Shown one piece after another: positions 7,105 to 46,940 of a DNA stretch of 64,000 bases (position 1 is the first letter of the stretch; every line of letters begins with the position of its first letter). The notes below the pieces were generated by a model. That model had not been told where the DNA came from, did not search any database, and saw only the letters and a list, made by a program, of their open reading frames with translations. Source of the stretch: Verrucomicrobia bacterium UBA1200 (GTDB lineage Bacteria > Verrucomicrobiota > Kiritimatiellia > RFP12 > UBA1067). A program made the position numbers and the translations under genes. The DNA is taken from assembly GCA_002309765.1 (NCBI GenBank), contig DBXY01000052.1, positions 84,210-148,209 of the forward strand, given 5' to 3'.

Positions 7105-7389
7105 AACATGACATTATAACGGGGCGCAAAATACTAAAGATGTGATGTTTTTAGTTGGTGGGGTTGGTTTTGAAATTGCCTCTTATGGCATATGTTACAC
7201 CGTTGGATTGATTTCTAACGGACAGCAAGGAGGGAAAAATCCATGGCAACAGGAAAAGCTCTCAATGGAAAGCCGTATGCGGGAAATCCGCACGTTGCGC
7301 CTTCGCAATGCTACGGCGGCACAAGTCGGTTTGTGGAGGGGGAAGTCGCATCGGCGGCGACACCGATGCGTGGGTCTCTACTCTACAAC

Positions 7390-9012
7390 ATGAGAAAACT
7401 GATAGCAGTCGCCGTTTCGCTATGCGCGGCGTACGCGTCTGCGGCGAATCCGATTCTGCCGCTATGGGAATACATACCAGACGGCGAGCCTTACATCTTC
7501 GACGATCCAGACAACCCGGGCAAGATGCGAGTGTATCTATACGGCTCGCACGACACTCTGCGCAATGCCTACTGTGGCTACGACTACACATTGTGGTCGG
7601 CACCGCTTGAGGATCCTAATCACTGGAGATGCGACGGGGTCATCTTCCAGTCGGTCAATGACGCGAACGGAGTGCCGCTTCTGAAGTCCGGCAAAGGGGA
7701 GCTCCTTTGGGATCCCGATGCGCAGGTTGTGACGGGGAAGGACGGCAAGAAGACGTATTATCTGTTCCCGTTCAACGTCCGGGCACGCGAACGGCTGGGA
7801 ATGGTGGCAAAGTCCAACCGCCCCGACGGCCCGTTCAAGGTCTGCAATTGGTCCAAGGACGATCCGAAGAAGGTGGATAGCTTCGGATTTCATCTCGCGA
7901 CATTTGTCGATGACGATGGAAGGGCATATGCCTACTGGGGAAGGGATGTGGGGTTCGGCAGCGACAGCGTGTCGGCGGCGGAGCTCGACACCTCCACCAT
8001 GTGCACACTCAAGCCCGGCGCGGAAATTCACAGGAATGTCGTCACCTCGTGGCGCCAGAAAGGGGAGGATCGCTACTTCGAGGGGCCTTCCATGCGCAAG
8101 ATAAAGGGGAAGTACGTGCTCATCTACGCTCGACACACGGCGGAAGGCGAATTTGGCCTTGAAGCAGAGTACTGCACACTCGCCTATGCATACTCCGACA
8201 GCCCGCTCGGACCCTTCACGTACGGCGGGACTTTGATCGACCTGCGTGGACGCGAGAAGGGACCTGACGGAAAGACGCGCATCACAGCGGCGCCGGGCGG
8301 AAATACGCACGGCAGCCTCTGCGAGATCAATGGGCAATGGTACGTGTTCTACCATCGGCAGACCGGCTTGAACGAATTCTCGCGCCAGGCAATGGTGGGC
8401 CGTGTGAATGTGACGATCGACGAGAGGCCGGGCGGGAAGGTAGCGATTTCCGAGGCGGAGATCGATTCCATGGGCTTCGAAACCGAGGGACTTGATCCGT
8501 TCGAGCTCCATGCAGCAGGAATTGCCAGCTATTACACGGGGCCAGTGCCCGCACGCCGCAGGCCGAGATATTCGTATTCCGGGCCCTATCCCGTGCCGTT
8601 TCGATGTGACGGATATGCGGCGAAGAACGCCTACGGTCCGGATGTAAACCGTTGTGCGCTCGTCAATTGCACGGAAGGTTCCGTTGCCGGATGGAAGTAC
8701 TTCAACTTCAATAATACTTTCGGGAAGAAGGGTTTGACGCTGTCCATCGAACTGGAGCCGAATAGATTGCAAGGCGTGATCGACGTGTGGGTGAAGCGTC
8801 CTTCGGCGAATGAGGGCGGCATGAAGGTTGGCTCGTTCACCTTGACTCCGGATTTGCCAGTCGGCATGCAGAGGGTGGAGATTCCCGTAGATGCACTTGC
8901 CGTCGTGAATGGCCGGGAGGCATTGTACTTGACTTTTTCATCGTCTGTGAAGAACCAGTCGATCTGCACATTGCACACCCTGCGGTTCCATCGGCGTGAA
9001 ACCCCAGAATGA
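7390..9012 (+). CDS. secreted GH43-like five-bladed beta-propeller glycoside hydrolase with a C-terminal carbohydrate-binding-like domain
   Basis: The real start is most likely the internal ATG at 7390 (MRKLIAVAVSLCAAYASA signal peptide); the track ORF starts upstream at 7243. The N-terminal PLWEYIPDGEPYIFDDPDNPGKMRVYLYGSHD is typical of the GH43 / clan GH-F fold. The C-terminal roughly 150 aa look like a beta-sandwich CBM. Confidence 0.65.
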   Translation: MRKLIAVAVSLCAAYASAANPILPLWEYIPDGEPYIFDDPDNPGKMRVYLYGSHDTLRNAYCGYDYTLWSAPLEDPNHWRCDGVIFQSVNDANGVPLLKSGKGELLWDPDAQVVTGKDGKKTYYLFPFNVRARERLGMVAKSNRPDGPFKVCNWSKDDPKKVDSFGFHLATFVDDDGRAYAYWGRDVGFGSDSVSAAELDTSTMCTLKPGAEIHRNVVTSWRQKGEDRYFEGPSMRKIKGKYVLIYARHTAEGEFGLEAEYCTLAYAYSDSPLGPFTYGGTLIDLRGREKGPDGKTRITAAPGGNTHGSLCEINGQWYVFYHRQTGLNEFSRQAMVGRVNVTIDERPGGKVAISEAEIDSMGFETEGLDPFELHAAGIASYYTGPVPARRRPRYSYSGPYPVPFRCDGYAAKNAYGPDVNRCALVNCTEGSVAGWKYFNFNNTFGKKGLTLSIELEPNRLQGVIDVWVKRPSANEGGMKVGSFTLTPDLPVGMQRVEIPVDALAVVNGREALYLTFSSSVKNQSICTLHTLRFHRRETPE

Positions 9013-9517: not shown

Positions 9518-9544
9518 GGTCGACCTCAACTCCATCCCGGTACG

Positions 9545-9793
9545 TTGACGGTAGGCGAAGAGTTTTCCGGTCTTATGACGGTGAGTGGTACGACGAACAC
9601 GGTCTTCGCATCCGGCGCGACGATGACGTTTGCGGACGCAGTGGAAGGTTTGCCGAGCGGCATGAGATTAATGGCCGAAAGCAACGGCCTCTATCTTGAG
9701 CGCCCGGGGATGGTCATCATTGTGAAGCAGTTTTCACGATGGGGCCAGAGCGGGATTTGTGGTTACTGTCGTCAGCCCGAACGGGTTGTGTAA
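9545..9793 (+). pseudogene. possible decayed C-terminal fragment of a giant beta-helical repeat protein paralog
   Basis: The 82-aa ORF contains ...TVSGTTNTVFASGATMTF...MAESNGLYLERPGMVIIVK. This matches the conserved extreme C-termini of the giant proteins in this window (GLRLKYSGGTIIIMR*, ARIILGGTLFMVR*, PSGTFIMFR*), except that no stop follows the final K. Confidence 0.3.
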
Positions 9794-9814: not shown

Positions 9815-10663
9815 ATGAACGTTGGCGTATTTCTCTGTCTCGAGCCCTACACGTCGCTCGATAACAACCTCCGTCTCGCGCACGAGTACGGATTCACCCA
9901 CGCGGATATCACGGACACCCATTCGGGCGGCAGTATGTTCGCGAGCGCCGGGCTTTCTGCCTCTGTGAGTCTCGATGACAACCCGTTTGAGATCAGGCGC
10001 ACGTTCGAGCGCCACGGCATGAAGATCATGACGCTTAGCGCGCACGCGCTCCTGCTGGAGCCGTCATCTCCCGCCAACTACGCGACGGCCGAGATCATGA
10101 AGGCCATCAAGTTCGCGGCCGGCGCGGGCATCGAATACGTGATTACCACCGAGACGTTCGCAAAGAGCGAGTGGGCGAAGTCGCTCACCTACAAGGAGAA
10201 GGTGTTCATCGCCGCCGAGAAGCTGTACAACCCCTGCCGCATGGCGACGGACTACGGCATCAAGCTCTGCCTGGAGCAGCACGGTCCGCTCACGGACACG
10301 ATCGATGGCATCGGCGACATCATGGACCGCCTCGGCAACCCCGACTCACTCGGCGTAAACCTCGACACCGGCAACAGTTGGCTCGGCGGCACAAACCCGG
10401 TCGATCTCGCGAAGAAGTACCACGACAAGATCTACCACATCCACTGGAAGGACCTCGGTCCGGAGTGGCTTCCGAAGCGCGGCACCATATTCGGCTGCGG
10501 CTTCTCCACCATCGAGGTGGGGACCGGCTGCATCGACGTGGCGGGCGTGATTGAGGTTCTGAAGGACAACAAGAACATCAAGTACTCCACCCTCGAAGTC
10601 GGCGGCAGCGCGGAACTCCTCCGCGCCAGCGCGAAGTACATTGAGGACCGCTGGAACGCGTAA
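9815..10663 (+). CDS. sugar phosphate isomerase/epimerase (xylose-isomerase-like TIM barrel) protein
   Basis: 282 aa with typical TIM-barrel family features and metal-binding-type H/D/E positions (HIHWKD, LDTGN). No signal peptide. Confidence 0.7.
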   Translation: MNVGVFLCLEPYTSLDNNLRLAHEYGFTHADITDTHSGGSMFASAGLSASVSLDDNPFEIRRTFERHGMKIMTLSAHALLLEPSSPANYATAEIMKAIKFAAGAGIEYVITTETFAKSEWAKSLTYKEKVFIAAEKLYNPCRMATDYGIKLCLEQHGPLTDTIDGIGDIMDRLGNPDSLGVNLDTGNSWLGGTNPVDLAKKYHDKIYHIHWKDLGPEWLPKRGTIFGCGFSTIEVGTGCIDVAGVIEVLKDNKNIKYSTLEVGGSAELLRASAKYIEDRWNA

Positions 10664-19444: not shown

Positions 19445-19735
19445 TGCGAACTCCTTGCTTACTGGGTAGAAACGGTTATGACGTCTTGGGCTTACACCGC
19501 TCGCTGGCATACCGTTTAAAACTGTCGGTGATTCTAGCAGTTTACCCCAATGCGGTCAAGGGCATTTTTCGTCAATCCAGATTACGCTGTTCGTTTTCCC
19601 GCTTGAACCCGAAGACCGAAATTAGTATCATATTTCCGTTTTTCTATCGGGGATGCCGCAGCCTCGAAACGAAAGGCACGGCAAATCAATTGCAAAGTGC
19701 CGCCGCAGTTACCAACCAACGAAAGGGACCAATCC

Positions 19736-22700
19736 ATGACCGCAGGAAAAATGTTCAACAAAAAGCCGTTTGCAAGGACTGATGAATGGGGATTTGTTGC
19801 GATTATCATAATATGCATGGCGATGATACCTTTAGCGATGTTAGCGGATGGCGTTAAGCGTTCGATGTCGCTTGTGGTAATGGTGGACGGTCTTCGTTCC
19901 GACGCGATCGAATCGGGACACATGCCCAACCTTGAAAAACTGCGCGCCGGAAAATGGCAGAGTGGCTACAAGGCCGCATGGTCGGTGACGGGGCAGATCA
20001 CCCCGGGCTCTGCGCCGTCCTCCGGGCCGAACCACGTCTCTATCGCGACGGGATTCAATCCAGCAACGCACGGTGTGACATCAAACACCATACTTGAAAA
20101 CGGAACGCCGTCCGCTATGCCGACCTGGCTCAAGCGCGTTATTGACGCGAAACCGGGAACGACAGCGCTCTTCGTCTATTCCTGGAGCCCTGACGGTAAT
20201 ATCGCCCCGAGCGAAGGTATCGAGTCCATGGGCGACTCGGACAACGAGAACGCCTCCGCGCTCGCGTCGCGCCTCGCTGCCGCGAACGCGCCGGACGCGA
20301 CCTTGTACTTCATCGACGCGGTCGACCACGCTGGTCACGCTGGGCAATACTATTCTTACACCGACGGATATCTCGCCGCCGTATCGACGGTTGACGGCTA
20401 CATCGGCGCGTGCCTCAACGCGATTGCGTCCCGTCCTACCTTCGCGGACGAGGATTGGCTTATCGCCGTCACTTCCGACCACGGCGGATACGGCACATAC
20501 CATGGACAGATTACCGTGGGCGGCCACGCCCAGACTATTCCGATTGTCATCGCCGGGACGAACATAACGCAGGGCCGCATCCCCGGCACGCCGTACAACT
20601 TCGACGTGGCAGCGTCCGCGCTACACCATTTCGGAATCACGGTTGCCGGGCTTCAGGCCTCGCTGCGCGACGGCGCGGCAGAGACGGTACGGACACTCAA
20701 TGACGGTCTATCCGTATATCTCTCGTTCAACGAATCGATGACCGACAACGCGGTCGTTGGCAGTTCCGTCACGCCGGAAATCGTCGGTTCGCCAACCCTG
20801 GTAGCGAACGGAATGCACGGTAAAAGCATGAGCATCTCCACGAACAACGTCTTGAAGCTCGCCGGTTCAGAATCGCTTTCGTTCGAGGATTCCAACCGCA
20901 GTTTCGCGGCGGTTGTCTGGGCAAAGTTCGCCGACAGGGGCGACGCCGGTGGCGATCCCGTCATCTTCGGCAACAAGTCTTGGTCTGGCAATGTAAAGGG
21001 GATGATTCTCACGTCGAGAAAAAAGGCGGGATGGACCTCCCCCGCATCAGGCGCGGGAGTAGGCTTCAACATTGGTTCCGGTTCAGGGCGCATGGATATC
21101 TATCCGATGCCGACCGAGGGTGCCTCGGCGTGGACCTTCTACGCCGTCACGTATTCCGAGAACGGTACTTACACACTCTACCAGGGGCGTAGCGACGGGA
21201 CACTCTATTGGGCGTCCGGGCAGTTCCCCGCCGCCACGCTGGCGTCGGGTATGCCGTTCTACATTGGGCAAGACGGAACTGGCAATTATTCAAAGCACTT
21301 CGTCGGCGAGGTTGATGACTTCGCGCTTTGGACGCGCGGGCTTTCGCATGACGACATCCGCCGCATCTACGAGTGCGGAAGGGCAGGCATGGAATTGGGC
21401 GACCTGCTTAAGATCGAAGCGAACGACGCGCCCACAATGGAAGTCTCGGTTGCCAACGGCGAGTACACGCTGGAATTCGGCGGACGTCGCACAATGACGC
21501 ACGAACTCTACATTGCCTACGGGGCTGATGATGAGGGCGGGAACAAGCACGCATGGGAATCGTTCGACAAAATCGCCGACATTCCAATGGGCACGACGAC
21601 GCACTCATACACCGTGCCGAATGCGCTGAAAGCCGCGAACGCAAAGTTCCGCTTCTTCCTCATGCAGACGGGCAGCCTTCCATACGCAAAGGAGGTCGAA
21701 TACGCCCATTCGGACGGTAACGCCTGGTTTGACACCGGCATCGCGCCGCGGCGCGACCTCGTCGCGGAGTTTGATGTGCGACTAACCGCCGACAACACGG
21801 AATGGGGTACTGGTAAGACCGACACGCAGACCGCAATCTACGAAAACATATTCGGCGCGTTCTGCGGCACGGACAAACGAGGGAACTACGGCATGTGCCG
21901 TTATCGTAGATCGGGTAACAGCAACCACAACAAGTGGGATCGCGAATTAAACACCGGAAACAACTACCAGTTCGTCGGCAGCTGCGTTAACGACACCGAC
22001 TACCACGTCATGTTCTCCACGACGGATCTCGTCATCAACGGCACATCTTACGGCAGCGGAATCACCGCCGCAAACTTCATCGAAGGCGGATACGGCATTA
22101 CGCTTTACCGCAACTTGAAGAACGGCGCGATCTATGACGACACGATGATCGGCTATTTCAAAACCTTCTTGCTCTACACCCCAAAACGCAAGGTGCGCGA
22201 CTACATGCCCGTTGTCGATGCCGACGGCACGGTGGGAATGTTCGATGCGGTAACGGGGCAATTCCAGACGAGCGAGGACACCGCGCTCACTGCAGGTTCG
22301 GACTGCGATGCCGCGCGCAAGGGATGGGTGCGCTGCGTCTCCGAAAAGGTTTATACTGCGAGCGACACTATTCCTGTCACCGCCACCTACACGGGTTTGG
22401 GGAGCGATCCGCTCGACTTCACCGATTCCGCGAACTGGGTTTGCGAGAATGCATACGGCGTCATGCTCGATGGCGCCGTGCCAACCATCGATACGGCGGT
22501 GACGGTAGCGGGCGAGACGGCGTTCGCAGTGCCAAGCGGTGCGGCAACGCCAGTCTGCGCTAGCATCAGATTCAACAACGCCACGCCAACGAACGCGATG
22601 GATTGGAGCGGACTTGATTTCACCAAAGTGACGGTAAACTCCGTGATTGATCTCAAAGGGCATACCCTTTATCTCGCCGATGAAAACAGCGCGGCATTAA

Positions 22701-23827
22701 GCCAGTTTACCGTGACCGACTCCTCGGACGGCGATCCCGGCATACTGCGCATTTCGGTTGCATCGGGCGCGACACTTGCCAACGAGGGCGTATCGTTGAC
22801 CGGAAACCTTAAACTCAAGAAAGAGGGAGAGGGCACATTCTCAGCCGCGAAGGCGGGTCAGGCATATAGCGGCGGCACGGACGTGGATGCCGGAACCGTT
22901 CTCGTTGGTTCGTCTGGCAACGGGCATTTCGGCAGCGGTATCGTCCATATCCCGACTGGAACGACATACGATGCGTACGGCAATGCCGATTCTTCCGTGA
23001 ACCTTGTTCTCGCTGGCGGAAAGATCGCGAATAACGGCGTTAACGCCACGTTACCATCGACACTAAGAATGACGGAAGATTCAACCATCGAGTTTGCCGT
23101 ATTGCCCGCAAACCACGACATGACCATTCCCGCCGGCGCGGTCTGGAATCTCGGCGGAAAGACGCTTTCCGTTGTGATGGACGGCTACGATCCCGACCTG
23201 CAAGTGAGGGACGTTACGATTTCCAACGGGACCTTCACCGTCACCGTCAACACTTACAACAACGAGACGAAGGGGTATGTGCAAATCTACAAACTGCGCG
23301 GCGGGGACGGGCTGAACCTCGACTTGGGCAACACGTGTCTGCGCCTTTCCTCGGGCGGAGTTGCGACTTCGCAAGTTTGCGACTTCACGGCGAATCCGCC
23401 AGACCAGGCGAATGTGGTGTATAGCTATTCGACGAGCCGGTTGCAGATTTTCGGCACGTATACGCCGCAGACGGTACGCGGATTGAACATGACGATGATG
23501 GACGGCTCGACGTTGGACATTTCGCATTGGTCCGGCGCATACAATTGCGTATTCACAAACCCGAAATACAGCAACAGCGCAAACAACACCCTCTGCGATC
23601 TCCAATTCTCCGCCGGGACGATTACGGTGAACCTCGCGGGACGGACGGACTTGGAGGAAATCGCAACGAGCGAATCGCCATACATCGTCACATGGGAAGA
23701 CGAGCCGGACACAGGAGTGTCATTCGTGCTTGATCCGGGAACTGCGGCCAGAACATTTGAAATTGCCAAAGAATCGACCGGGCTTCGCCTCAAGTACAGC
23801 GGCGGGACAATCATCATTATGCGCTGA
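19736..23827 (+). CDS. giant membrane-anchored/secreted protein with an N-terminal nucleotide-pyrophosphatase/phosphodiesterase (NPP, alkaline-phosphatase-superfamily) domain, a LamG-like lectin domain and C-terminal beta-helical repeats
   Basis: Start taken at the ATG at 19736 (MTAGKMFNKKPF...GFVAIIIICMAMIPLAML anchor). NPP motifs: LVVMVDGLRSD, SSGPNHVSIATG (nucleophile region), SDHGGYG (metal ligands). LamG motif: GEVDDFALWTRGLSHDDIRRIY. The C-terminal third is a Gly/Thr/Asn-rich beta-strand repeat region paralogous to the ORF at 61687. Confidence 0.75.
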   Translation: MTAGKMFNKKPFARTDEWGFVAIIIICMAMIPLAMLADGVKRSMSLVVMVDGLRSDAIESGHMPNLEKLRAGKWQSGYKAAWSVTGQITPGSAPSSGPNHVSIATGFNPATHGVTSNTILENGTPSAMPTWLKRVIDAKPGTTALFVYSWSPDGNIAPSEGIESMGDSDNENASALASRLAAANAPDATLYFIDAVDHAGHAGQYYSYTDGYLAAVSTVDGYIGACLNAIASRPTFADEDWLIAVTSDHGGYGTYHGQITVGGHAQTIPIVIAGTNITQGRIPGTPYNFDVAASALHHFGITVAGLQASLRDGAAETVRTLNDGLSVYLSFNESMTDNAVVGSSVTPEIVGSPTLVANGMHGKSMSISTNNVLKLAGSESLSFEDSNRSFAAVVWAKFADRGDAGGDPVIFGNKSWSGNVKGMILTSRKKAGWTSPASGAGVGFNIGSGSGRMDIYPMPTEGASAWTFYAVTYSENGTYTLYQGRSDGTLYWASGQFPAATLASGMPFYIGQDGTGNYSKHFVGEVDDFALWTRGLSHDDIRRIYECGRAGMELGDLLKIEANDAPTMEVSVANGEYTLEFGGRRTMTHELYIAYGADDEGGNKHAWESFDKIADIPMGTTTHSYTVPNALKAANAKFRFFLMQTGSLPYAKEVEYAHSDGNAWFDTGIAPRRDLVAEFDVRLTADNTEWGTGKTDTQTAIYENIFGAFCGTDKRGNYGMCRYRRSGNSNHNKWDRELNTGNNYQFVGSCVNDTDYHVMFSTTDLVINGTSYGSGITAANFIEGGYGITLYRNLKNGAIYDDTMIGYFKTFLLYTPKRKVRDYMPVVDADGTVGMFDAVTGQFQTSEDTALTAGSDCDAARKGWVRCVSEKVYTASDTIPVTATYTGLGSDPLDFTDSANWVCENAYGVMLDGAVPTIDTAVTVAGETAFAVPSGAATPVCASIRFNNATPTNAMDWSGLDFTKVTVNSVIDLKGHTLYLADENSAALSQFTVTDSSDGDPGILRISVASGATLANEGVSLTGNLKLKKEGEGTFSAAKAGQAYSGGTDVDAGTVLVGSSGNGHFGSGIVHIPTGTTYDAYGNADSSVNLVLAGGKIANNGVNATLPSTLRMTEDSTIEFAVLPANHDMTIPAGAVWNLGGKTLSVVMDGYDPDLQVRDVTISNGTFTVTVNTYNNETKGYVQIYKLRGGDGLNLDLGNTCLRLSSGGVATSQVCDFTANPPDQANVVYSYSTSRLQIFGTYTPQTVRGLNMTMMDGSTLDISHWSGAYNCVFTNPKYSNSANNTLCDLQFSAGTITVNLAGRTDLEEIATSESPYIVTWEDEPDTGVSFVLDPGTAARTFEIAKESTGLRLKYSGGTIIIMR

Positions 23828-26954: not shown

Positions 26955-29591
26955 CTACTTGGCAAGCTCCAAAAGCTGTTCCGGCCAGTCCTTAATGATT
27001 TTGGGCGGAACGGCGACTCCGTTCTCCTGCGAATCGTAGGGTTTCCCGCAACCAAGATTCTCCGGATAGGAGACGGCTTTTTTGACGGCGGCTTTCGCCG
27101 CATTGCGGTCGCCGCGCTTTAGCGCGTCGAGCGCGATACCCCGCCAAGCGTTAACCCACGCCGGAAGGGCGTTGTCGCCGCACTCCGACGGCAAAAACGT
27201 CGTCTTTTCGAGATAATCAACCGTCTCCTGAAAACGCCCGCTCTGCGAAAGCGCGGTGGCGTATGCGAGTTTTACCGGATTCGACTCGGGGTAACGGTCA
27301 AAACAAGGCGTTATCTCCGCCAAAGCCGACTCCCAATCCCCGGTCTCCGCAAAATGACGGTAAAGCGCATACCCGACACGCCATGATCGCTGGAATTTTG
27401 CCGCCCGGCGGAGATCGCAAAGCCGCCGATCACCCTTTTCACGCGAGGCGCGGAAAAGATAGAATGTCTCGTCATCGGGTTTGTCGCCGCACTTTTCAAG
27501 CAGCTTGTCCGACCGCTCGCCCCAACCGTTAGCGGCAAATCCGACCGCCGCATAGTACGAGAACTTCCATGAAGGATGGTTCATCGCCGCATGGTCAAGC
27601 GCGGGAAGCGTCTCACGTCGGAACGGCAGCGCGAAATCAATGGGAGCGGCGGCAACCGCGTCCAGCGTCTTCTTTGTCTCACCACCCCGGCCGGTACGGT
27701 ACAACAGATACGCGAGACGCAACCCGCCGACGGGATTAACCGCCGCGAGACGGAAGAACCTTTCGGCGTCATCGTACAATCCAGCCTCTTCGTACCAACC
27801 GCCGAGGTCAATATAAGTCTGGTACGGAAATTCGCCGCGAACAAATTTCGCGAACGGTTCGGTTGCGGCGTCAACAAGATTCAATTCATACCGGGCCGCG
27901 TGGAACAGCGGGACACGGTCGAGAATCCGTCGCGCCGTGTCAGCCGCCGCCACCTTGTCGCCGCGTTTGCGGGCGGCGGCGATCCGCACCAGCCACGCAT
28001 CAAGATTCAACCCGTTCGCAACAAGCGCGTCTTGCGCCATCTTTGCCGCCTCGTCCCAATGCCCCTCCCGCATCTCCGCTTTAGCGACAAGAACAAACGC
28101 GGAAGCGCGGACCTGCGGCGAATAGGCGGCAAGCCCCAACCGTTCCTTGGCCGTAAGCAAATCGCCCTCCGCGAAGAACGCCTGCCCGTCGGCAAAGTTC
28201 GCCTCCGGATCGTAGGTGTTAACCGCCAATGCGCGTTGCGCGTACCCGTGGGCACCAGCGTAATCGCCGCGCCGCACCGACAACGCGGCAAGCTTGTCAA
28301 GCGCGGGGGCAAAACACGGTTCGATTTCGAGGCTTTTCAAAAGTTCCTCTTTCGCCTCGGCATCTTTGCGCTGGAACAGCGCCTGCTCGCCTTTGACATA
28401 ATGGCCGTAGGCGGAATCCCAGTTGAAACCGTCCGGCATCGCCAGCGGACGCGGAACCGTATTCGTCACGTTCAACCGTTTCGCCAAGTCAGCGCGATCC
28501 CGAACCACGCCCCATTTCTCTTCGAAAGTATCCGTCGCCCCCGGTTCAAAGGCGGGGTGCTTGAAGGGCGTTTTCAGCGTATCGCCAGGCTGATTGAAAC
28601 ACCGCCCGGATTGCAATTCCGTATATTGGCCATCCGTATCCGTGAGCAAATCCTCCCAGATGCCGCCCTCACGCGACAGCGCCCAAAGCCAGACCTTTCG
28701 GCCGTATTTCTGCGTCACGCCGTTTTCGTGGATCGAACCGATCTTTTTATCCGGCCACCAGACTCCGTAAACAGTATGGTCGCCGTTCAGCACATGGTAT
28801 GACTTGTGACTGCCGAAGGCATTCTCCGAATAATTGGAGAGGGTGTGGCCTTGGTCATCGACCGGCCAAGGGTGCGGGTCGCCGCCATGCCCGATGTAAG
28901 ACGAACCTGGGAAGAAGAACTCCGGATTACCGTGAGCGGAATAGGCGGCGTTCATCCACTGGTAATATGGCACAGCGAGATTTGAGCCGTTGAACCAAAT
29001 GGTGCGCGTTAGGAAATAGTCGGCGTCCGCCGGCAGGTTTACCTCCACCTGCCATGTGGTTCGGCAAATTAACTCCGTGCTGGAACAGAAATAACTGACA
29101 CTACCGTCAGCATTCGTGCGCACGCACCAATCGACCGGCGTGGCGGAAGTAGGAGCGTGCCCGATGATACCGAAGTTGAACTCGATTCCACCGGAACACC
29201 ACGGTCCACGCATTGCGATATTGCGAAACTTCACCGCATGGTTGAAGTAGATGAAATCGTGTCCCGTCACCTTATCTTGCGCCCCCCACACTTTGCCGCC
29301 GATTTCGGGAAGGATCGTCACCTTGATCCGGTTATTTTCCAATATGACCGCTTTCCACTTTCGGGAAACGCTTTTTTCGTTTGTTCCGTGGAAAAAGAAA
29401 TACGGATATCGCGATTCCCCCGTGGCCGGGACCGGATCGGAATCAAAGAACTGATAAGTGGGCAACTCTATCTCCGTCTCAGTCACGGTTGCGGCGGAAA
29501 ATGTCCGCACCTTGTTGGGATGGCCATTCTCGTCCGCCCCCGCACAAATCGCAAAACACGCGCAAATTGCCAGTATCCGGAGTTTCTTCAT
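26955..29591 (-). CDS. secreted DUF5107-domain protein with C-terminal TPR repeats
   Basis: Start at the ATG at 29591 (MKKLRILAICACFAICAGA signal). The N-terminal roughly 400 aa (YPYFFFHGTNE, ENNRIKVTILPEIGGKVWGAQDKVTGHDFIYFNH) match DUF5107, from memory. The C-terminal roughly 450 aa are TPR-like Ala/Leu-rich helical repeats. Confidence 0.65.
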   Translation of the reverse strand: MKKLRILAICACFAICAGADENGHPNKVRTFSAATVTETEIELPTYQFFDSDPVPATGESRYPYFFFHGTNEKSVSRKWKAVILENNRIKVTILPEIGGKVWGAQDKVTGHDFIYFNHAVKFRNIAMRGPWCSGGIEFNFGIIGHAPTSATPVDWCVRTNADGSVSYFCSSTELICRTTWQVEVNLPADADYFLTRTIWFNGSNLAVPYYQWMNAAYSAHGNPEFFFPGSSYIGHGGDPHPWPVDDQGHTLSNYSENAFGSHKSYHVLNGDHTVYGVWWPDKKIGSIHENGVTQKYGRKVWLWALSREGGIWEDLLTDTDGQYTELQSGRCFNQPGDTLKTPFKHPAFEPGATDTFEEKWGVVRDRADLAKRLNVTNTVPRPLAMPDGFNWDSAYGHYVKGEQALFQRKDAEAKEELLKSLEIEPCFAPALDKLAALSVRRGDYAGAHGYAQRALAVNTYDPEANFADGQAFFAEGDLLTAKERLGLAAYSPQVRASAFVLVAKAEMREGHWDEAAKMAQDALVANGLNLDAWLVRIAAARKRGDKVAAADTARRILDRVPLFHAARYELNLVDAATEPFAKFVRGEFPYQTYIDLGGWYEEAGLYDDAERFFRLAAVNPVGGLRLAYLLYRTGRGGETKKTLDAVAAAPIDFALPFRRETLPALDHAAMNHPSWKFSYYAAVGFAANGWGERSDKLLEKCGDKPDDETFYLFRASREKGDRRLCDLRRAAKFQRSWRVGYALYRHFAETGDWESALAEITPCFDRYPESNPVKLAYATALSQSGRFQETVDYLEKTTFLPSECGDNALPAWVNAWRGIALDALKRGDRNAAKAAVKKAVSYPENLGCGKPYDSQENGVAVPPKIIKDWPEQLLELAK

Positions 29592-29683
29592 ACTTCTCGC
29601 CCCTTTCGCCATACCTTACGAAGCACTTCCCCTTCATCGGTGCGGAATCATATCAAACCATGCGCAATTCCGCAACGATGAAA

Positions 29684-35300: not shown

Positions 35301-38300
35301 TTAGCGGACCATAAACAGGGTGCCGCCTAGAATAATCCGGGCGGTCTTCTTATCCGCCGAGAGAACCACCGTGTATTTGTCCGGCAGATTGGTCTCGGCG
35401 AAGGTTCCGCTGATGGTACCCACCGAAGTGGTGGCAAAGGTGTAGGAGCCGCCCGCCAACTGCTCGCTGGTGAATTCCAGCTTGGCATTGGTGAGATCCA
35501 AAGAACCTTCACACTGCAGCAGGTCGCCCTGCGCCACCCGGAGCGTACCGGTGAGCACCGTGTCCAAAGCGAGATTCAACGTGCCGATGGCGTCATCGCC
35601 GCCGGGCGAAAGCACGCCCTTGACGTTCAAGGTGCCATGATAAACCCGGCCGCTACCCGACAGGCCAAACAGCTCGTGGGTGTCGCCGTTCAGGTCAAGC
35701 GTGGCACCGGCCGCGACATCGACGTTACGGACGGTCTCGACAAATTCGCTGGAGAGTTTCGGCAGCGCGTCGGTGCCGAGAATCGCGTTCTCGGTCAACT
35801 GGGCTTCCGACAACCCCGCGTTCCAAACGCGGAACTCGAAATAGGTCGCGCTGGCATCGGGATCGTTAAATTCGGAACGGCCCAACACGCAATGCACCTG
35901 ATTTAGGCTCGCGATGGTCCAGTTGTCATAGTGCCGGGTAGCAATGGCGATGGTCTCGCCGGTCCCAGCGTCCTGCTGGTAGAGGGTGACGTCTGAACCA
36001 CCCGCCCCGTCCGGAATTACCACGCAGCCAAAGTGGTAGATGACACCCTCGGTACACTCGTTAACCGGGATGTTGGCATAGTTGCTGACACAGAAGAAGC
36101 CCTTGCCTGTGACCGGGTCTGCACCGCCGCGCCAGCCCATTGCCAGATAATCGGAAGTGGAAGACCCGAAGGCGAACGCCTGACTCCAAGTGCGAGCGAT
36201 ATTCTGCCGTCCCCAGAACTCGATGGTCACCGGACCCTCGGTCGGCAGAATGTCCGTGCCGAGGTTAATCGACGAAGTACCCTTGTTGCCGCCGGAGGTT
36301 TGCGCCGCCTTGCCGCTGTCGAGGCGAACCTGACCCTGCGGGATCGCGTCGGCTCCGCCGATCACGTCGGCGTAGGAGTTGTTGAACGGCCAGCGGTGGG
36401 TCAAGTAGTTGTTCTGCAACAGTTCGGCGCTAGGCTCATCCGGGAAAACGTTGTCATCTTTAACCGTGTCTTCCTGGAGATAGGCAGGAAGCCGGTCCGG
36501 ACCGTAAAGCACGTTCTGGGTGAGTTCGGCATCGGTGAAAACGCGGTTCCAAACGCGGACTTCGTTGTAGTTCGCCATCGCGTCGGCATCACCCCACTCA
36601 TGGGTAGCCCCGAGGAAGCAGTAATTCAGCGCCCACTCTGAGGTAGTCCAATTACTAACGTTGATGGTTCTGGAACCCAACGTGGCGCCGGTGGCAATAT
36701 CCTTACGAACCGCTACCACCGAAGTATTGCCCGCCCCGTCCGGTTTGATGGTAACCGCATAGTAGTATTCAGCATTAAGGTCAATCGTACCGGTACCGGT
36801 TTCGTTGCCGCTCTTACCCAACACATTGACTGAAGTATTCTGAGTGTCACCACCGGTGCAGAAGGTCATCAAAAGACCATTGTCAGTTTTCGAGCTGAAG
36901 CAGAACATTTTTGACCAGTTTCTCCTCTCGCGCAACGTCGTCCACAACTCGATGGTTACCGGGGTGTTGTCCGAAGGGAGAATGTCACTGCCAAGATTGA
37001 CGTAGCCGCCAAAATGCGTACCCGCGTTCAGGCAAATCTGCTTGCCGTCCTCCGAGTAAGTGCAGTTGCCAACAATGAAGGCGTTTTTGTCGCCGACCAA
37101 ATCTTCGGCAGTGCCGTTGAAGCTCCAGCGGTGGACCAACCCGCCGCTGCCGGAGTGAATGGAGAGCGTACCCTCGGCAACGTTGAGATTTTCGACCGAC
37201 GGCACCGTACCCAAAGCGAGCAACCCGCTGCCGGTTTTGGTGATGGCACCGGTGGAACGACCGTTGGCCACCGGAATGCCGTAAGAATACACGCTGTTGG
37301 CACCGGTATCGATGGTCACGCCGCCGGGACCGATGGAGAGTCCGGCGGAATCATTGCCGTTGAAGAAATTCGCGAACACGCCCGAAGGATCGGGATTTTC
37401 TTCCGTCGCCGGGTTGTACGGAGCGAGAGTGGCGTTGTCAACGTAGAACACCAAGGTGTTGGTGGTGGCGCCGAAGTTGAAGCTGGAAGCCTCCACCCGA
37501 CCGCCGTCCGTAACGTTGAGAATAGCCCCCTGGGTCTCGACCGCATTCGCCAACCGGACAGGGGCGGCGGAGTAAACCCGACCATCGCCGCTAACATTCA
37601 AAGTACCGGTACCCAGCTCGCCGACGATGATGGCGCGACCGGCGTTAGGCTGGGTTAGAGTGCCGCCGGAGATGTCCCAAGTACCAACCGAACCGGCATA
37701 ACGGGCAATGCTAAACCACTCGGAGCAAGACGCAGCACCGCCGGTTTGGAAAACCTCGCCAATGCCGTAGCGGCCGATCTGGAAGTTATTGTCCACCTGC
37801 AAGACACCGTCGTTCAGGCGATAAATACCGTGGCCAACCAGATTGTCGTTATTGTTATATTCGCCGATGGCGGCGTCTTCACCGCGTTTGGTGGTGTCAT
37901 GGACGACGCCGCCGTTTTGGATCAATTCGCCAACGCCGAGGTTGCCGATAATCAGTTGCCCGACTTGAATGTCCGCGCCCGGCTCGACGTAAATTTTTGA
38001 AGTGGTGCCTCCTTCCCATGCGGCGATGAAACGGCCGCCTTCCATGTCAATCGAGCTTCCGCTCTCGAAATGCGACTCGGAACCGGTCCCTGTGAAACCG
38101 GAATAGAACCAACCGCCGGAGGTGGTCAGTTTTACGCCGTCGGTCACATAAAGCTTCGTGGCGTTGTAGATGCGGTAATCATGCGTGTAATAGGTGGCAA
38201 GGGAGTTGGTAAAGTATGCCACGCCGTCATAAATCTGCACCCACTGGTTCGGGGTGGAGATACCGCCGTCGAAACTGATCGTGGCGGGACCGGTCTTGAC

Positions 38301-40088
38301 GATATGGTTGGCACTGCACGAAATCTCGCCCGCCATTATCACCGCCGCGTTTGCATCGGCGCTGTTCGCCTCGATGGTCAACGTGCCGGCGGTATAAATT
38401 ATCGGGTTGACAAAAGTCAACGGGGCATTCGCGCCCGTATCATTCAACCGCAAAGTTCTGATGCCTTTCTCGGTAACATTTAAAGCTGCGCCCTCACCGC
38501 CGATGTCCACGGTTAACGGAGCATTCATCGCGGCAAGCGACAGCGGCTGCCCTTCATCCACCGAGAAGTTGGCGGCGCCTTCGCCGATGGAACGGGTCAT
38601 AGGCGACTCGTTGATCGGGGCCCAACCGCCGCCGGCGAGCCGGATGTGCGAATCGTTGGGGATGCCCACGCCCTTTGCCGCATGGAGCAAGCCTTTCCAG
38701 ATCACGGTATCGCCGGTGTAGGTATTCGCGCCGGTAAGGGTAAGGGTGTTGTTTCCAGTCTTGGACAAACCGGCGGTACCGGTAAGGGCGATAGCGTCAT
38801 CGAACTCCGCGTTACCGCCATTGGTATCCAAACCGATACCGACGTTGTAGATACCGTTTATCCGGGCGATCAATGCGGCGGTTGCCGCTTCTGACCAGTT
38901 GTTGACGCCAAAGCCCACGGTGGTGCCGGGGGCAATCGTGAAGTCCGCCTCGGCGATGGAAGGAATCGAATTCTCATTGGACAACACCAAAGTACCGGCG
39001 CTGAGAACGGTAGGCCCCTCGTAATCCGCCGAGCCGTTCAGCACCAAAGTCCCGGCACCGGTCTTGGTAAGTCCGCCGTCGGCAGTGGCGTCGGGATGCT
39101 TGGTGAAGTTGTTGTTGATTGAAGCATAATGTCCTTCGGGGATTTCCAGTTTCGCGCCGCCGTCGTTAACGTAAAGGTGGGCGATTTCCGCCGGAATGTA
39201 AGGATCCCTAATCAGGGTGGTGCCGCCCATCGCCAGCGTGCCGCCGTCAAAGTTGATGGTGGAGTCGGTGCCGTAGGTGTTCTGCCGCTGGATATAGTTG
39301 GCGGAAATTCTTCCACCCTCCATCAGGTTCACCGTACCGTAGCCGTTGACGCTGAGCCGTCCCAACAAATCCATATTGGCAGTACCGCTAACGTTCAGGG
39401 TGGCTTTGCCGTACTCGCCAACGATTACACCGCCGCCGGCGTTGACACCGGAAAACGTACCGCCGGTGAAGTTGTAGATGCCCTCGCTGTCCACCACCAC
39501 GCCGTCCAAGGTGGAGTTCATCCGCCCCATCGCAAACCACGCGGAGTGTTCAATGGTACCGCCGCTCTGGTTGATGATGCCGGTGCCGTAACGGCCGATG
39601 TTAGAGTTGGCGCCAGTTACAGAGAGTTTGCCACCCGTGATGTTCACGGTACCCGTCGAGCCGAGTCCGACACCCACGCCAAAGCCGGGGTCGCCGCCGG
39701 CGCGGACGGTATAGGTGCCGCCGCTGATGTTCAGCGTGGCGACAGACCCCGCCGCATCGGCCACGAAAAGCTGGTCGGATTCAAATGTGCCGTTGGTCAA
39801 GGTAGCAATCACCTCGGCGCTGTCCACTTCCGGGTCGTCGGTAATGTAACCCAGATAAAGCCGCCCCACGACGAGCGTGCCTTCGCTGCTAAGCGAGATG
39901 TCGCTATTGCCGGGGATTCTGGCGTAGTCCGATTCCGCCGGGACAAAAGTCTCGCGCCAGTTCCCGTTGAGCGACCAGGTACTGCCGTCGTCATTGCCAG
40001 TCCAATGCACGTCCGCGGCCGAAGCCAGCATCGCCACACCGGCCGCCGCGCCGAACCACCACAATTTGCCAAAAAGTAATTGCCTCAT
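35301..40088 (-). CDS. giant secreted beta-helical repeat protein with two LamG-like (concanavalin-A-like) domains
   Basis: Start at the ATG at 40088, preceded by AAGGAG, giving MRQLLFGKLWWFGAAAGVAMLASA (signal peptide). The N-terminal two thirds carry many GGTLxxxGxT / NxTG-type beta-strand repeats (autotransporter-associated beta-strand repeat style). Two LamG-like domains (WSFNGTAEDLVGD...EVRVWNRVFTDAEL and HRWPFNNSYADVIGG...EFRVWNAGLSEAQL). Ends ...GGTLFMVR*. Confidence 0.8.
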   Translation of the reverse strand: MRQLLFGKLWWFGAAAGVAMLASAADVHWTGNDDGSTWSLNGNWRETFVPAESDYARIPGNSDISLSSEGTLVVGRLYLGYITDDPEVDSAEVIATLTNGTFESDQLFVADAAGSVATLNISGGTYTVRAGGDPGFGVGVGLGSTGTVNITGGKLSVTGANSNIGRYGTGIINQSGGTIEHSAWFAMGRMNSTLDGVVVDSEGIYNFTGGTFSGVNAGGGVIVGEYGKATLNVSGTANMDLLGRLSVNGYGTVNLMEGGRISANYIQRQNTYGTDSTINFDGGTLAMGGTTLIRDPYIPAEIAHLYVNDGGAKLEIPEGHYASINNNFTKHPDATADGGLTKTGAGTLVLNGSADYEGPTVLSAGTLVLSNENSIPSIAEADFTIAPGTTVGFGVNNWSEAATAALIARINGIYNVGIGLDTNGGNAEFDDAIALTGTAGLSKTGNNTLTLTGANTYTGDTVIWKGLLHAAKGVGIPNDSHIRLAGGGWAPINESPMTRSIGEGAANFSVDEGQPLSLAAMNAPLTVDIGGEGAALNVTEKGIRTLRLNDTGANAPLTFVNPIIYTAGTLTIEANSADANAAVIMAGEISCSANHIVKTGPATISFDGGISTPNQWVQIYDGVAYFTNSLATYYTHDYRIYNATKLYVTDGVKLTTSGGWFYSGFTGTGSESHFESGSSIDMEGGRFIAAWEGGTTSKIYVEPGADIQVGQLIIGNLGVGELIQNGGVVHDTTKRGEDAAIGEYNNNDNLVGHGIYRLNDGVLQVDNNFQIGRYGIGEVFQTGGAASCSEWFSIARYAGSVGTWDISGGTLTQPNAGRAIIVGELGTGTLNVSGDGRVYSAAPVRLANAVETQGAILNVTDGGRVEASSFNFGATTNTLVFYVDNATLAPYNPATEENPDPSGVFANFFNGNDSAGLSIGPGGVTIDTGANSVYSYGIPVANGRSTGAITKTGSGLLALGTVPSVENLNVAEGTLSIHSGSGGLVHRWSFNGTAEDLVGDKNAFIVGNCTYSEDGKQICLNAGTHFGGYVNLGSDILPSDNTPVTIELWTTLRERRNWSKMFCFSSKTDNGLLMTFCTGGDTQNTSVNVLGKSGNETGTGTIDLNAEYYYAVTIKPDGAGNTSVVAVRKDIATGATLGSRTINVSNWTTSEWALNYCFLGATHEWGDADAMANYNEVRVWNRVFTDAELTQNVLYGPDRLPAYLQEDTVKDDNVFPDEPSAELLQNNYLTHRWPFNNSYADVIGGADAIPQGQVRLDSGKAAQTSGGNKGTSSINLGTDILPTEGPVTIEFWGRQNIARTWSQAFAFGSSTSDYLAMGWRGGADPVTGKGFFCVSNYANIPVNECTEGVIYHFGCVVIPDGAGGSDVTLYQQDAGTGETIAIATRHYDNWTIASLNQVHCVLGRSEFNDPDASATYFEFRVWNAGLSEAQLTENAILGTDALPKLSSEFVETVRNVDVAAGATLDLNGDTHELFGLSGSGRVYHGTLNVKGVLSPGGDDAIGTLNLALDTVLTGTLRVAQGDLLQCEGSLDLTNAKLEFTSEQLAGGSYTFATTSVGTISGTFAETNLPDKYTVVLSADKKTARIILGGTLFMVR

Positions 40089-40323
40089 ATTGACCACTCC
40101 TTTACCACATTTAAACCAACTGCATAATAAGTTAATCAATTCCACCTGTAAAGTAAAGTGAAAACCGAGCGCGGAAGTAAAAAAGTTATCCGTCTTGTTA
40201 CCTTGGATAACGCCAACCGCCTCAACATCCATTTTTCTTCCCCGCTTTTTCTTTTTTCGTTTGAATTTTACCGCCTTTTATGGCATAATAAATCGCGATT
40301 TTCAAACGAAAGTGAGGTTTTAA

Positions 40324-45977: not shown

Positions 45978-46940
45978 ATGCGCCGCATCGCCAAAATCGA
46001 GGTGGCTGCCGCCAACGCCGGGATTCCGGTCGCGGAGTTTCTGGCAACGCGGTTCACTTACCATTCGCGGGAAGAATGGACGGCGCAGATTGACTCCGGC
46101 GCCATCACCGTTAACGGCGCGGCGGTGCGGCCGGAAGATCCGCTTGCGGCCGGCGCGGTGCTGGAATACGCGCCGCCTGCCGTACCCGAACCGCCAGCCG
46201 ACTTGTCGTACACCGTGCTGGCGGACGACCCGGATTTCATAATCGTGGACAAAAGCGGCAACCTGCCGTGCCATCCGGCGGGGCGGTATTTCCGGCATAC
46301 GCTTTGGGCATTGCTTAAGGAGCGGCAGCATATCGACACCCCGATTTTCGTACACCGGCTCGACCGCGAGACTTCCGGCGTGGTGATGGTGGCCAAGAAC
46401 CCCGCCACGGCCCGCGTCCTCTCCGCGCAGTTTGAGCGGCGGGAGGTCAGCAAGGAATATCTGGCGCTGGTGGAGGGCGAATTTCCCCAACAGCTCAGTA
46501 CCGAAGGGTGGCTGTGCCCGGACACGGTCTCCTCCATCCGCAAGAAACGCCGTTTTGTCCTTGGCGAAACGCCCCCCTGCCCCAACGCCGAACCGGCCGC
46601 CACCGTCTTCCGGCGCGAAGCGTTCGCCAACGGAATCAGTTTGGTGCGAGCGATTCCGCACACCGGACGCACACACCAAATCCGGGCGACGCTTTATTCG
46701 CTCGGTTACCCGGTGGTGGGCGATAAACTCTACGGGCGCGACGAATCTTGCTTTCTGCGCCAACTTGAAGGCCGGCTGACCGACGCCGACCGACGCGCGC
46801 TGCGTCTCGACCGACAGGCGTTACACTCCGCGTTACTGCGGTTCCGGCATCCGCGCAACAATAATGAAGTCTCTGCGACCGCACCCGTACCTGCATCATG
46901 GCACGGCGTTATGCCAATCGGGATAAACAATGAATACTAG
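45978..46940 (+). CDS. RluA-family pseudouridine synthase
   Basis: Catalytic-Asp motif VHRLDRETSGVVMVAKN. N-terminal S4-like region. Conserved HTGRTHQIR. Confidence 0.8.
   Translation: MRRIAKIEVAAANAGIPVAEFLATRFTYHSREEWTAQIDSGAITVNGAAVRPEDPLAAGAVLEYAPPAVPEPPADLSYTVLADDPDFIIVDKSGNLPCHPAGRYFRHTLWALLKERQHIDTPIFVHRLDRETSGVVMVAKNPATARVLSAQFERREVSKEYLALVEGEFPQQLSTEGWLCPDTVSSIRKKRRFVLGETPPCPNAEPAATVFRREAFANGISLVRAIPHTGRTHQIRATLYSLGYPVVGDKLYGRDESCFLRQLEGRLTDADRRALRLDRQALHSALLRFRHPRNNNEVSATAPVPASWHGVMPIGINNEY

Follow-up and report, generated by a model that had tools for sequence, protein, structure and literature searches.

Giant proteins encoded in the 64-kb stretch of DNA analysed here (the window) share a short C-terminal tail, and on sequence the same tail is common to hundreds of very large, predicted secreted proteins of gut and rumen Kiritimatiellia. 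Full-text literature searches returned no description of it. We give even chances to the reading that this tail acts as a modular C-terminal tag restricted to the lineage, of the form G-[T/L/F]-(I/L/V/F/M)4-[R, less often K/W/Q/Y/H]-COOH, which marks Sec-exported adhesin- or lectin-like giants of these bacteria for the cell surface. It would be an undescribed, non-tripartite surface-sorting or anchoring tag, presumably read by an envelope partner that its carriers share. The initial annotation had called it a candidate novel sorting or anchoring signal, and the modularity of the tail, the Sec signal peptides of its carriers, its positional equivalence to known signals and its coil state in AlphaFold2 models all point to such a role.

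The features of the window on which the analysis was based are the following:

19736-23827, plus strand: giant protein 1, with a signal/anchor N-terminus, a Phosphodiest/sulfatase-like domain, LamG and a C-terminal beta-solenoid of ~580 aa; the ORF opens at 19697, and the likely start at 19736 (MTAGKMF...) was set by ortholog P0241
23801-23824, plus strand: tail of protein 1, GGTIIIMR, with the stop TGA at 23825-23827
35301-40091, minus strand: giant protein 2, with PATR repeats and two LamG-like regions; the ORF reaches 40232, and the likely start M48 (MRQLLFGKLWWFGAAAGVAMLASA/AD) was set by ortholog P0001
35304-35327, minus strand: tail of protein 2, GGTLFMVR, with the stop TAA at 35301-35303
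48852-53792, minus strand: giant protein 3, with a signal peptide, DUF2341, LamG and PA14
48855-48878, minus strand: tail of protein 3, SGTFIMFR, with the stop TAA at 48852-48854
9518-9790, plus strand: decayed 3' remnant of a tagged gene of the protein 1 type, with the tail GMVIIVK at 9707-9727

Translation of 19697-23827 (plus strand), 35301-40232 (minus strand) and 48852-53792 (minus strand) gave the C-termini ...KYSGGTIIIMR, ...RIILGGTLFMVR and ...TKPSGTFIMFR, each followed directly by the stop codon, which bears out the earlier claim that all three giant proteins have one C-terminal end in common. When the six frames of the window were cut at stop codons into 1182 segments of 30 aa or more, exactly three had a C-terminus of this type, and these three are the longest ORFs of that set. 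As background, about 0.6% (18/3058) of the non-coding 'shadow' ORFs in related DNA end in the motif, so that three tagged giants out of three would arise by chance with a probability of about 2e-7. Both counts rule out chance or a compositional artefact as the origin of the tail. Furthermore, the codons and stop codons differ among the three genes (ATC ATC ATT ATG CGC TGA in protein 1, CTG TTT ATG GTC CGC TAA in protein 2 and TTT ATT ATG TTC CGT TAA in protein 3), indicating that the tail is conserved at the amino-acid level and excluding conservation of the DNA itself.

The additional copy at 9518-9790 is regarded as the decayed 3' remnant of a tagged gene because hhalign matches it to the last columns of the profile built for the protein 1 family (E 7.7e-6). 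It had been described as a pseudogene fragment (9545-9793) with the same kind of ending; the tail-like ...ERPGMVIIVK is indeed present, but it is not the end of an ORF. Where the protein 1 family has its stop, the remnant has CAG (9728-9730), one substitution away from TAG, and its reading frame continues for 21 codons past GMVIIVK.

The consensus was derived from 114 distinct relatives of protein 3, most of which end in the tail. Seven residues make it up: G at -7 (75/114, 66%), T, L or F at -6, I, L, V, F or M at -5 to -2, and at -1 mainly R (75/114, 66%), with W (15, 13%), Q (8) and K (7, 6%) as the other frequent residues. Only G(-7) and R(-1) stand out, the remaining positions being kept by residue class alone; positions -8 to -12 are rich in P, G, A and S and unconserved, and the onset of conservation at -7 is abrupt. 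This consensus is wider than the pattern first proposed, G-(G/T)-(T/M)-hydrophobic(3-4)-(R/K), with T, L or F at -6 and W and Q also admitted at -1.

The tail is widespread within its lineage. The family of the protein 1 C-terminal domain comprised 701 sequences with E<1e-3, and the tail ends 124 of 150 representatives taken from different 50%-identity clusters and hence less than 50% identical to each other. A metagenome scan, whose query was an alignment of 7 closer sequences, yielded 25 loci, with the tail directly at the stop codon in 22. All carriers with a source name are labelled Kiritimatiellae or Kiritimatiellia, and the genome loci are mostly so labelled. Besides the three intact copies and the remnant in the window, 1-6 copies per MAG were found in the few contigs sampled, a per-genome frequency that is biased because the loci were picked through homologs of the giant proteins. 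In related DNA the tail tracks ORF size, being present in 25/67 ORFs of 1000-1500 aa, in 17/40 of at least 1500 aa and in none of the 204 of 80-200 aa. This last count speaks against the possibility, raised in the initial annotation, that the motif is as frequent on unrelated cytoplasmic proteins.

Several lines of evidence show that the tail is modular. BLAST found no significant similarity among proteins 1, 2 and 3, and clustering of the 80 aa before the tail separated 309 tagged proteins into 26 unrelated contexts, among them a LamG end with a linker, a 'DIGCYE' beta-helix end and a 'DGLYL' solenoid end. In the AlphaFold2 model of protein 1, GLRLKY is the final strand; the SGGTIIIMR that follows is modelled as coil, with a pLDDT of 77 for the last 10-residue block against 93.6 overall. 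In two unrelated contexts, after a confident solenoid and after a LamG domain, the tail was coil or of low pLDDT; in both, it is thus predicted to lie outside the adjacent fold, with the caveat that its failure to dock in AlphaFold2 counts as negative evidence only. When the C-terminal domain of protein 1 was compared with the PDB by Foldseek, no match reached significance, and there was a weak resemblance to beta-helix proteins.

These data bear on a purely structural explanation, according to which the tail simply finishes or caps the C-terminal domain as its final strand, plays no part in sorting and owes its conservation to common descent. Members of the protein 1 family have a conserved 'DGLYL/TGLRL' strand ahead of the tail, and the two could pair as a hairpin; within a family, tail and domain are inherited together. 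Nevertheless, at least 26 unrelated contexts precede the same tail, including LamG through a low-complexity linker of ~15 residues; conservation starts sharply at -7; and in both modelled contexts the domains are confident while the tail is coil of reduced or low confidence. We therefore consider a mere cap very unlikely.

Regarding export, a simple rule detected a Sec-type signal peptide in 197 of 237 tagged proteins, few of them with a lipobox, and all three giants of the window are positive once their starts are corrected. The tail is not a general companion of signal peptides, as at least seven signal-peptide proteins of the window lack it, including GH2, GH20, GH127 and DUF5107 proteins. 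Homologs from other phyla have a different C-terminal signal at the tail site, either PEP-CTERM or an autotransporter barrel. The 120 PATR homologs of protein 2 include 62 that are PEP-CTERM-like, 7 that are aromatic-ended (barrel-like) and 14 with the ending F[FY]R[LV]xxP, and the tag is confined to the 5 closest; in the passenger homologs P0024, P0056, P0065 and P0077 the PF03797 barrel continues where the tail starts. The tail thus occupies the position of the PEP-CTERM/exosortase signal or of the autotransporter barrel of other phyla, and it may well replace them in function too.

This arrangement raises the possibility of a strand similar to the beta-signal of outer-membrane proteins, which would pair with the edge strand of a separate Omp85/BAM-type or 'split autotransporter' barrel that translocates or holds the solenoid. 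Like the OMP and autotransporter signals recognised by BAM, the tail is a short, hydrophobic, strand-like C-terminus on exported proteins of diderms, with a Gly a short distance upstream, and some tails have W (15/114) or, in few cases, Y as the last residue, as aromatic-ended classical beta-signals do. The carriers resemble autotransporter passengers: PATR repeats typical of these are present, without a barrel, in protein 2 and its relatives, and the tail begins at the point where passenger homologs run into PF03797. On the other hand, most tails end in Arg or Lys rather than Phe, Trp or Tyr, and the hydrophobic residues are consecutive instead of alternating. Moreover, no barrel precedes the tail (no barrel family of Pfam, PF03797 included, matches the window proteins, and AlphaFold2 predicts a solenoid followed by coil), and neither a barrel domain nor an Omp85 gene was seen near tagged genes. 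No classical OMP was found within the sampled DNA for a comparison of beta-signals. On balance, a pairing of this kind seems improbable to us.

We also compared the tail with known sorting-signal models. At E<=10, the last 52-60 aa matched no sorting-signal model of Pfam or NCBIfam; the sole match, RDR6, was judged spurious. NCBIfam matches to the 'TafC fimbrial protein' scored 20-47 bits against a cutoff of 410 bits, and TafC, a protein of haloarchaeal Tat-fimbriae, was considered irrelevant. A word-indexed protein search returned no match for the C-terminal 146 aa of protein 2. PATR (PF12951 / TIGR02601) is confined to residues 388-417 and 488-517 of protein 2, with none in proteins 1 and 3; these matches are distant from the C-terminus of protein 2, and the tail is not the end of a PATR repeat. 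The earlier concern that the C-termini could belong to a known domain HMM such as PATR was thus not substantiated, since Pfam and NCBIfam leave them uncovered at this threshold.

Haft has proposed eight criteria for tripartite C-terminal sorting signals (doi 10.1101/2023.06.07.544157). The tail agrees with five of them (1, 2, 6, 7 and 8). The stop codon follows directly in all three window genes and in the large majority of the metagenome loci and family representatives counted above (criterion 1); three intact copies plus a remnant occur within 64 kb, and 1-6 in the contigs sampled per MAG (criterion 2); most carriers have an N-terminal signal peptide by the simple rule (197/237; criterion 6); many pairs of carriers are alike only in the signal, as seen from the absence of BLAST alignments among the giants and the 26 upstream clusters (criterion 7); and homologs elsewhere lack the signal or have another one, only 5 of the 120 homologs of protein 2 being tagged (criterion 8). 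The tail departs from the three architectural criteria (3, 4 and 5), which are common to all characterised small sorting signals (doi 10.1101/2023.06.07.544157): the signature should contain three or more invariant residues, but only G(-7) and R(-1) stand out, each at 66%; instead of a hydrophobic region as long as a transmembrane helix there is a run of 5 residues; and where 2-5 clustered basic residues would be expected, the tail has one terminal R or K, or else W/Q.

These features can be set against the PEP-CTERM/exosortase system and the tripartite class in general (LPXTG, GlyGly-CTERM, PGF-CTERM, MYXO-CTERM). The likeness lies in the extreme C-terminal position, the several copies per genome, the otherwise unrelated carriers with signal peptides, the different signal found at the same place in homologs of other lineages, and the kind of protein that is decorated, namely surface proteins of the PVC group of the PATR, LamG and beta-helix types. 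Unlike this class, the tail has no invariant triad, no transmembrane helix (5 hydrophobic residues), one terminal basic residue and no HMM match. A degenerate or miniature tripartite signal (PEP-CTERM, GlyGly-CTERM etc.), cut by an exosortase- or rhombosortase-like intramembrane enzyme, would account for the superficially similar layout (Gly-Gly or Ser-Gly, hydrophobics, Arg) and for the location at the PEP-CTERM site of homologs from Verrucomicrobiota and Planctomycetota. The hydrophobic run of 5 instead of ~20 residues, the single basic residue in place of 2-5, and the absence of PEP or another invariant triad bring it close to refuted by architecture. No sorting-signal model matched at E<=10, no genuine PEP-CTERM protein was seen among 703 ORFs of related genomes, and we regard this reading as scarcely credible. 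In particular, a transmembrane anchor cut by an intramembrane sortase is impossible with a hydrophobic stretch of just five residues and one basic residue.

Other systems resemble the tail in part. The C-terminal domain of T9SS substrates in Bacteroidota is likewise a lineage-restricted C-terminal label on Sec-exported giants, adhesins as well as enzymes, bound for the surface, with remote machinery serving many substrates, a likeness that for the tail would extend to destination and machinery. In contrast to that domain, which is folded and ~70-100 aa long (TIGR04183/TIGR04131), the tail has 7-8 residues, is predicted to be unfolded and is negative for these models in NCBIfam with full proteins and with tails (E<=10) alike. 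T1SS C-terminal signals differ in that their carriers have no Sec signal and contain RTX/Ca-binding repeats ahead of the signal, which stays uncleaved, whereas the carriers here have Sec-type signal peptides and no RTX family in Pfam or NCBIfam. The distinction drawn in the initial annotation from autotransporter barrels, T9SS C-terminal domains, PEP-CTERM and LPXTG therefore stands, given the missing barrel, the missing model match and the different architecture. In type V pili of Bacteroidota and in chaperone-usher systems, the C-terminus can be a free hydrophobic strand, unpaired in the monomer and available for beta-augmentation. Such subunits have a common acceptor fold (plus a lipoprotein N-terminus in type V), in contrast to the tagged proteins, which have no universal domain and few lipoboxes.

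Partners of the tail were also looked for in the gene neighbourhood. No partner, processing enzyme or transporter was found beside tagged genes in the window, in 79 genome loci or in 25 metagenome loci. In the window, the tagged genes are flanked by those for tRNA synthetases, RNA methyltransferases, glycoside hydrolases and the like; LuxR-type two-component systems and AraC-type regulators recur in the 79 genome loci, and no neighbour recurs across the 25 metagenome loci. This is compatible with a somewhat unlikely alternative in which the tails work with no dedicated machinery, either entering the outer-membrane/LPS interface or self-associating as short cross-beta 'zippers' that bundle the giants, with the terminal R, K, W, Y, H or Q placed at the interface or serving as a 'gatekeeper'. 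An unbroken run of five beta-branched or aliphatic residues between a Gly and a charged or amphipathic residue is consistent with it, as are the exposure of the tail in AlphaFold2 models and the absence of machinery beside every tagged gene examined. Membrane interfaces favour R, K, W, Q, Y and H, which are also preferred gatekeepers of segments prone to aggregation, and the set of terminal residues fits these preferences. However, five residues would give weak membrane affinity to proteins of 1300-2800 aa, the conserved Gly(-7) and the strict C-terminal placement suggest specific recognition, and a one-to-many system predicts equally well that no machinery lies nearby.

According to the preferred reading, a surface tag with a shared reader, the giants would first pass through Sec by means of their N-terminal signal peptides, which are seen in the sequences. 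The beta-solenoid, LamG and other domains would then fold, so that the last 7-9 residues, as modelled in two contexts, stay free as a hydrophobic strand attached through a flexible linker of Pro, Gly, Ala and Ser. Finally, an envelope component encoded elsewhere and common to many carriers could capture this exposed strand along with the Arg and the carboxylate at its end. Beta-strand augmentation in a hydrophobic groove is the most plausible mode of capture, and the partner would pass the protein across the outer membrane or retain it there. More tentatively, and with somewhat less than even confidence, we propose a new non-tripartite sorting system of gut and rumen Kiritimatiellia in which a 7-residue 'beta-strand tag' is read by an outer-membrane or periplasmic receptor, in place of exosortase/PEP-CTERM and autotransporter barrels, for the display of a large repertoire of giant lectin- or adhesin-like proteins.

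Short C-terminal signals have repeatedly led to envelope machinery before, as in the cases of sortase, exosortase, rhombosortase, archaeosortase, myxosortase and T9SS. The tail shows the traits of distribution by which these systems were noticed, but its architecture, too short for an anchor and with a single basic residue, is found in none of them, and its reader therefore likely works differently. The tail marks hundreds of giant LamG, DUF2341, PATR, PA14 and LRR proteins, and a pattern anchored at the C-terminus would predict the surface proteome of abundant, uncultured, polysaccharide-degrading bacteria of the rumen and gut. Tag counts would also offer a handle for finding the machinery through phylogenetic profiling.

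Lastly, some minor observations were made. The source organism of the window is an uncultured rumen/gut Kiritimatiellia bacterium. A choice-of-anchor-Q-like match in P0234 stops 9 residues short of the C-terminus at 22.6 bits against a cutoff of 25 bits, and this lead is marginal overall (22.6-25 bits against the same cutoff). The few small carriers that were checked are secreted BspA-LRR and LamG proteins, and a rare variant of the tail has an extra ...NFDNLKGRKKS at its end.

Giant proteins 1, 2 and 3 are encoded by the window's three largest ORFs, and their translations end, directly before the stop codon, as follows:

19697-23827, + strand: protein 1 ORF, ending ...KYSGGTIIIMR
35301-40232, - strand: protein 2 ORF, ending ...RIILGGTLFMVR
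48852-53792, - strand: protein 3 ORF, ending ...TKPSGTFIMFR

Of all 1182 stop-delimited segments in six frames (30 aa or longer), 3 had this type of ending, exactly the three giants, against a background of about 0.6% among non-coding 'shadow' ORFs in related genomes; together with the translations, the scan confirmed the shared C-terminus described in the initial annotation. Because the three tails differ in codons and stop codons, the peptide, not the DNA, is conserved. Mechanically called starts of proteins 2 and 1 lay too far upstream (window 40092-40232 and 19697-19735), and once starts were corrected by orthology all three giants had Sec-type signal peptides:

about 40091, - strand: protein 2 start, M48 (ortholog P0001)
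19736, + strand: protein 1 start, MTAGKMF (ortholog P0241)

The giants showed no significant or collinear mutual similarity in BLAST. Protein 1 combines Phosphodiest/sulfatase-like and LamG domains with a long beta-solenoid at its C-terminus; protein 2 carries LamG-like regions besides its PATR repeats, and protein 3 has DUF2341, LamG and PA14. Furthermore, when the 80 residues preceding the tail were compared across 309 tagged proteins, they formed 26 clusters, counted as unrelated at E<1e-3, and proteins 1, 2 and 3 fell into three different ones. In one of these contexts a LamG domain ends and a low-complexity linker of about 15 residues leads on to the tail. Others are the protein 1 solenoid with its 'DGLYL' end and a 'DIGCYE' beta-helix end; in P0234, which has the latter, a choice-of-anchor Q match just below threshold stops 9 residues before the C-terminus.

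The closest database proteins (91-93% identical) came from Kiritimatiellae MAGs, and the great majority of related genome loci belonged to Kiritimatiellia MAGs of rumen and gut origin (goat, sheep, yak, roe deer, cattle and human), some of which still bear the earlier labels Verrucomicrobia or Lentisphaerae; all carriers with a source name were labelled Kiritimatiellae or Kiritimatiellia. HMMER, run exhaustively with the C-terminal 580 aa of protein 1, retrieved 701 representatives, each standing for one 50%-identity cluster; the tail ended 124 of the best 150 of these, the remainder being mostly near-variants. For protein 3, the C-termini of 114 distinct relatives showed G at -7 in 75, T/L/F at -6, I/L/V/F/M at -5 to -2 and R (75), W (15), Q (8) or K (7) at -1, while -8 to -12 were Pro/Gly/Ala/Ser-rich without conservation. 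The stop followed the tail directly in 22 of 25 independent metagenome loci. The tail is a modular, lineage-wide, position-locked C-terminal peptide of Sec-exported giants, and almost certainly a genuine, selected tag.

Several variants were seen. P0241, the 93% ortholog of 19736-23827, lacks the terminal Arg, ending ...YSGGTIIIIL and not ...YSGGTIIIMR, which could be a sequence error, a recent mutation or tolerated variation. Trp always replaced Arg in two upstream-context clusters (...RTMILVW, ...RTMLFIW), and MAG RUG12088 holds both types:

Trp-ending tagged Kiritimatiellia giants: P0129, P0134, P0136, P0141, P0142, P0145, P0147, P0161, P0181, P0212, P0216, P0235

In P0269 and at the ends of the matched ORFs of L096, L097 and L098 the hydrophobic run is not terminal and an 11-residue basic extension follows (...GGLVIIVNFDNLKGRKKS).

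Related DNA totalling 1.17 Mb had the tail on 25 of 67 ORFs of 1000-1500 aa and 17 of 40 of at least 1500 aa, many 'untagged' giants being near-variants or spurious opposite-strand ORFs. It was not found there on small or cytoplasmic-type proteins: none of 204 ORFs of 80-200 aa had it, and the small carriers checked were secreted BspA-type LRR and LamG proteins. Sec-type signal peptides were found on 197 of 237 tagged proteins, with a lipobox on few. The tail is not a general export signal, since at least seven other signal-peptide proteins of the window (GH2, GH20, GH127 and DUF5107 proteins included) lack it; the class that it marks is adhesin- or lectin-like. The richness of the window in such enzymes and related proteins, DUF5107+TPR among them, fits a polysaccharide-degrading lifestyle:

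1916-5659, 46930-48792, 56706-58991, 59372-61312, 26955-29612: signal-peptide glycoside hydrolases and related proteins, without tail

Of the top 120 PATR homologs of protein 2, drawn mainly from Verrucomicrobiota and Planctomycetota and in smaller part from Proteobacteria, 62 ended in a PEP-CTERM-like signal, 14 in F[FY]R[LV]xxP and 7 in an aromatic, barrel-like residue; four hits had the autotransporter barrel domain PF03797, and only the 5 closest had the tail. No genuine PEP-CTERM protein was found among 703 ORFs of related Kiritimatiellia loci. The tail thus stands at the position that PEP-CTERM or a barrel takes in other phyla. The recurrent F[FY]R[LV]xxP ending (...ARFFRLRQP, ...QFYRLEVP), in Verrucomicrobiota and Planctomycetota, may represent either a further tag or the final strand of a terminal domain that these proteins share:

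F[FY]R[LV]xxP before the stop: P0020, P0022, P0023, P0026, P0035, P0051, P0063, P0080, P0119 and others

No Pfam or NCBIfam model covered the tail, even at E<=10, and full-text literature searching found no published description. Of the eight attributes that Haft gives for small sorting signals at the C-terminus (doi 10.1101/2023.06.07.544157), the tail shows C-terminal location (1), several copies per genome (2), signal peptides (6), otherwise unrelated carriers (7) and homologs with other signals (8), and lacks an invariant triad (3), a transmembrane helix (4; five hydrophobic residues) and a basic cluster (5; one basic residue). This architecture essentially excludes a degenerate tripartite signal. 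The initial distinction from autotransporter barrels, T9SS CTDs and PEP-CTERM stood, given the terminal Arg, five hydrophobics, no folded domain and no model match (TIGR04183 and TIGR04131 included). T1SS signals differ in that tail carriers have Sec signal peptides and no RTX repeats. Alternatively, the tail could serve a separate barrel as a beta-signal-like strand; unlike OMP/autotransporter beta-signals, it ends in Arg, its hydrophobics are consecutive and do not alternate, and no barrel accompanies it. TafC is a subunit of haloarchaeal Tat-fimbriae; its NCBIfam matches in P0152 (residues 2100-2246) and P0204 (residues 1430-1584), at 41-47 bits against a 410-bit cutoff, were judged not meaningful and probably reflect a shared beta-rich domain.

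AlphaFold2 (last 300 aa of protein 1, 30-sequence alignment) gave a confident beta-solenoid (mean pLDDT 93.6) with GLRLKY as its last strand and SGGTIIIMR as coil, pLDDT falling to 77 in the last 10-residue block. Foldseek found no significant PDB match for this solenoid, which beta-helix adhesins and tailspikes resembled only weakly. In a second model, of a LamG-end relative, the LamG core was confident and linker and tail fell below pLDDT 50. The tail is predicted to be unpacked, the models leaving five consecutive hydrophobic residues exposed in two unrelated contexts, which favours a partner, membrane or self-association over a purely structural strand, a reading also disfavoured by the 26 upstream contexts. 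The sequence and model tests run all support the candidate novel sorting or anchoring signal proposed initially, and a role in surface sorting or anchoring is somewhat more probable than not. A shared envelope component encoded elsewhere would capture the tag, most plausibly by beta-augmentation; this specific partner-capture mechanism is tentative. No candidate partner adjoined tagged genes in any data set examined, as expected of a one-to-many system. The tail could instead insert directly or self-associate without a partner, and the residues of its terminal set, R/K/W/Y/H/Q, typically occupy interfacial or 'gatekeeper' positions.

The initial annotation also reported a tailed pseudogene fragment. 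The fragment is real, with a signal-peptide gene of 589 aa (7243-9012) before it and a gene of 282 aa (9815-10663) after it, but was mis-described: its frame runs past GMVIIVK (9707-9727) into CAG and 20 further codons. That CAG, at the former stop position, differs from TAG by a single substitution, and the fragment matches the final columns of the profile built for the protein 1 family (hhalign E 7.7e-6). It is a decayed gene end:

9518-9790, + strand: decayed 3' remnant of a protein-1-type tagged gene (profile alignment)

Lastly, LuxR-type response regulators, HisKA_3 histidine kinases and AraC/periplasmic-binding-domain regulators adjoined DUF2341 giant genes at 6-7 loci each, and this recurrence hints at substrate-sensing control of giant expression:

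L074 6817-7608, L055 5777-8236, L081 34-1374 and cluster members: regulator genes beside DUF2341 giants in related loci
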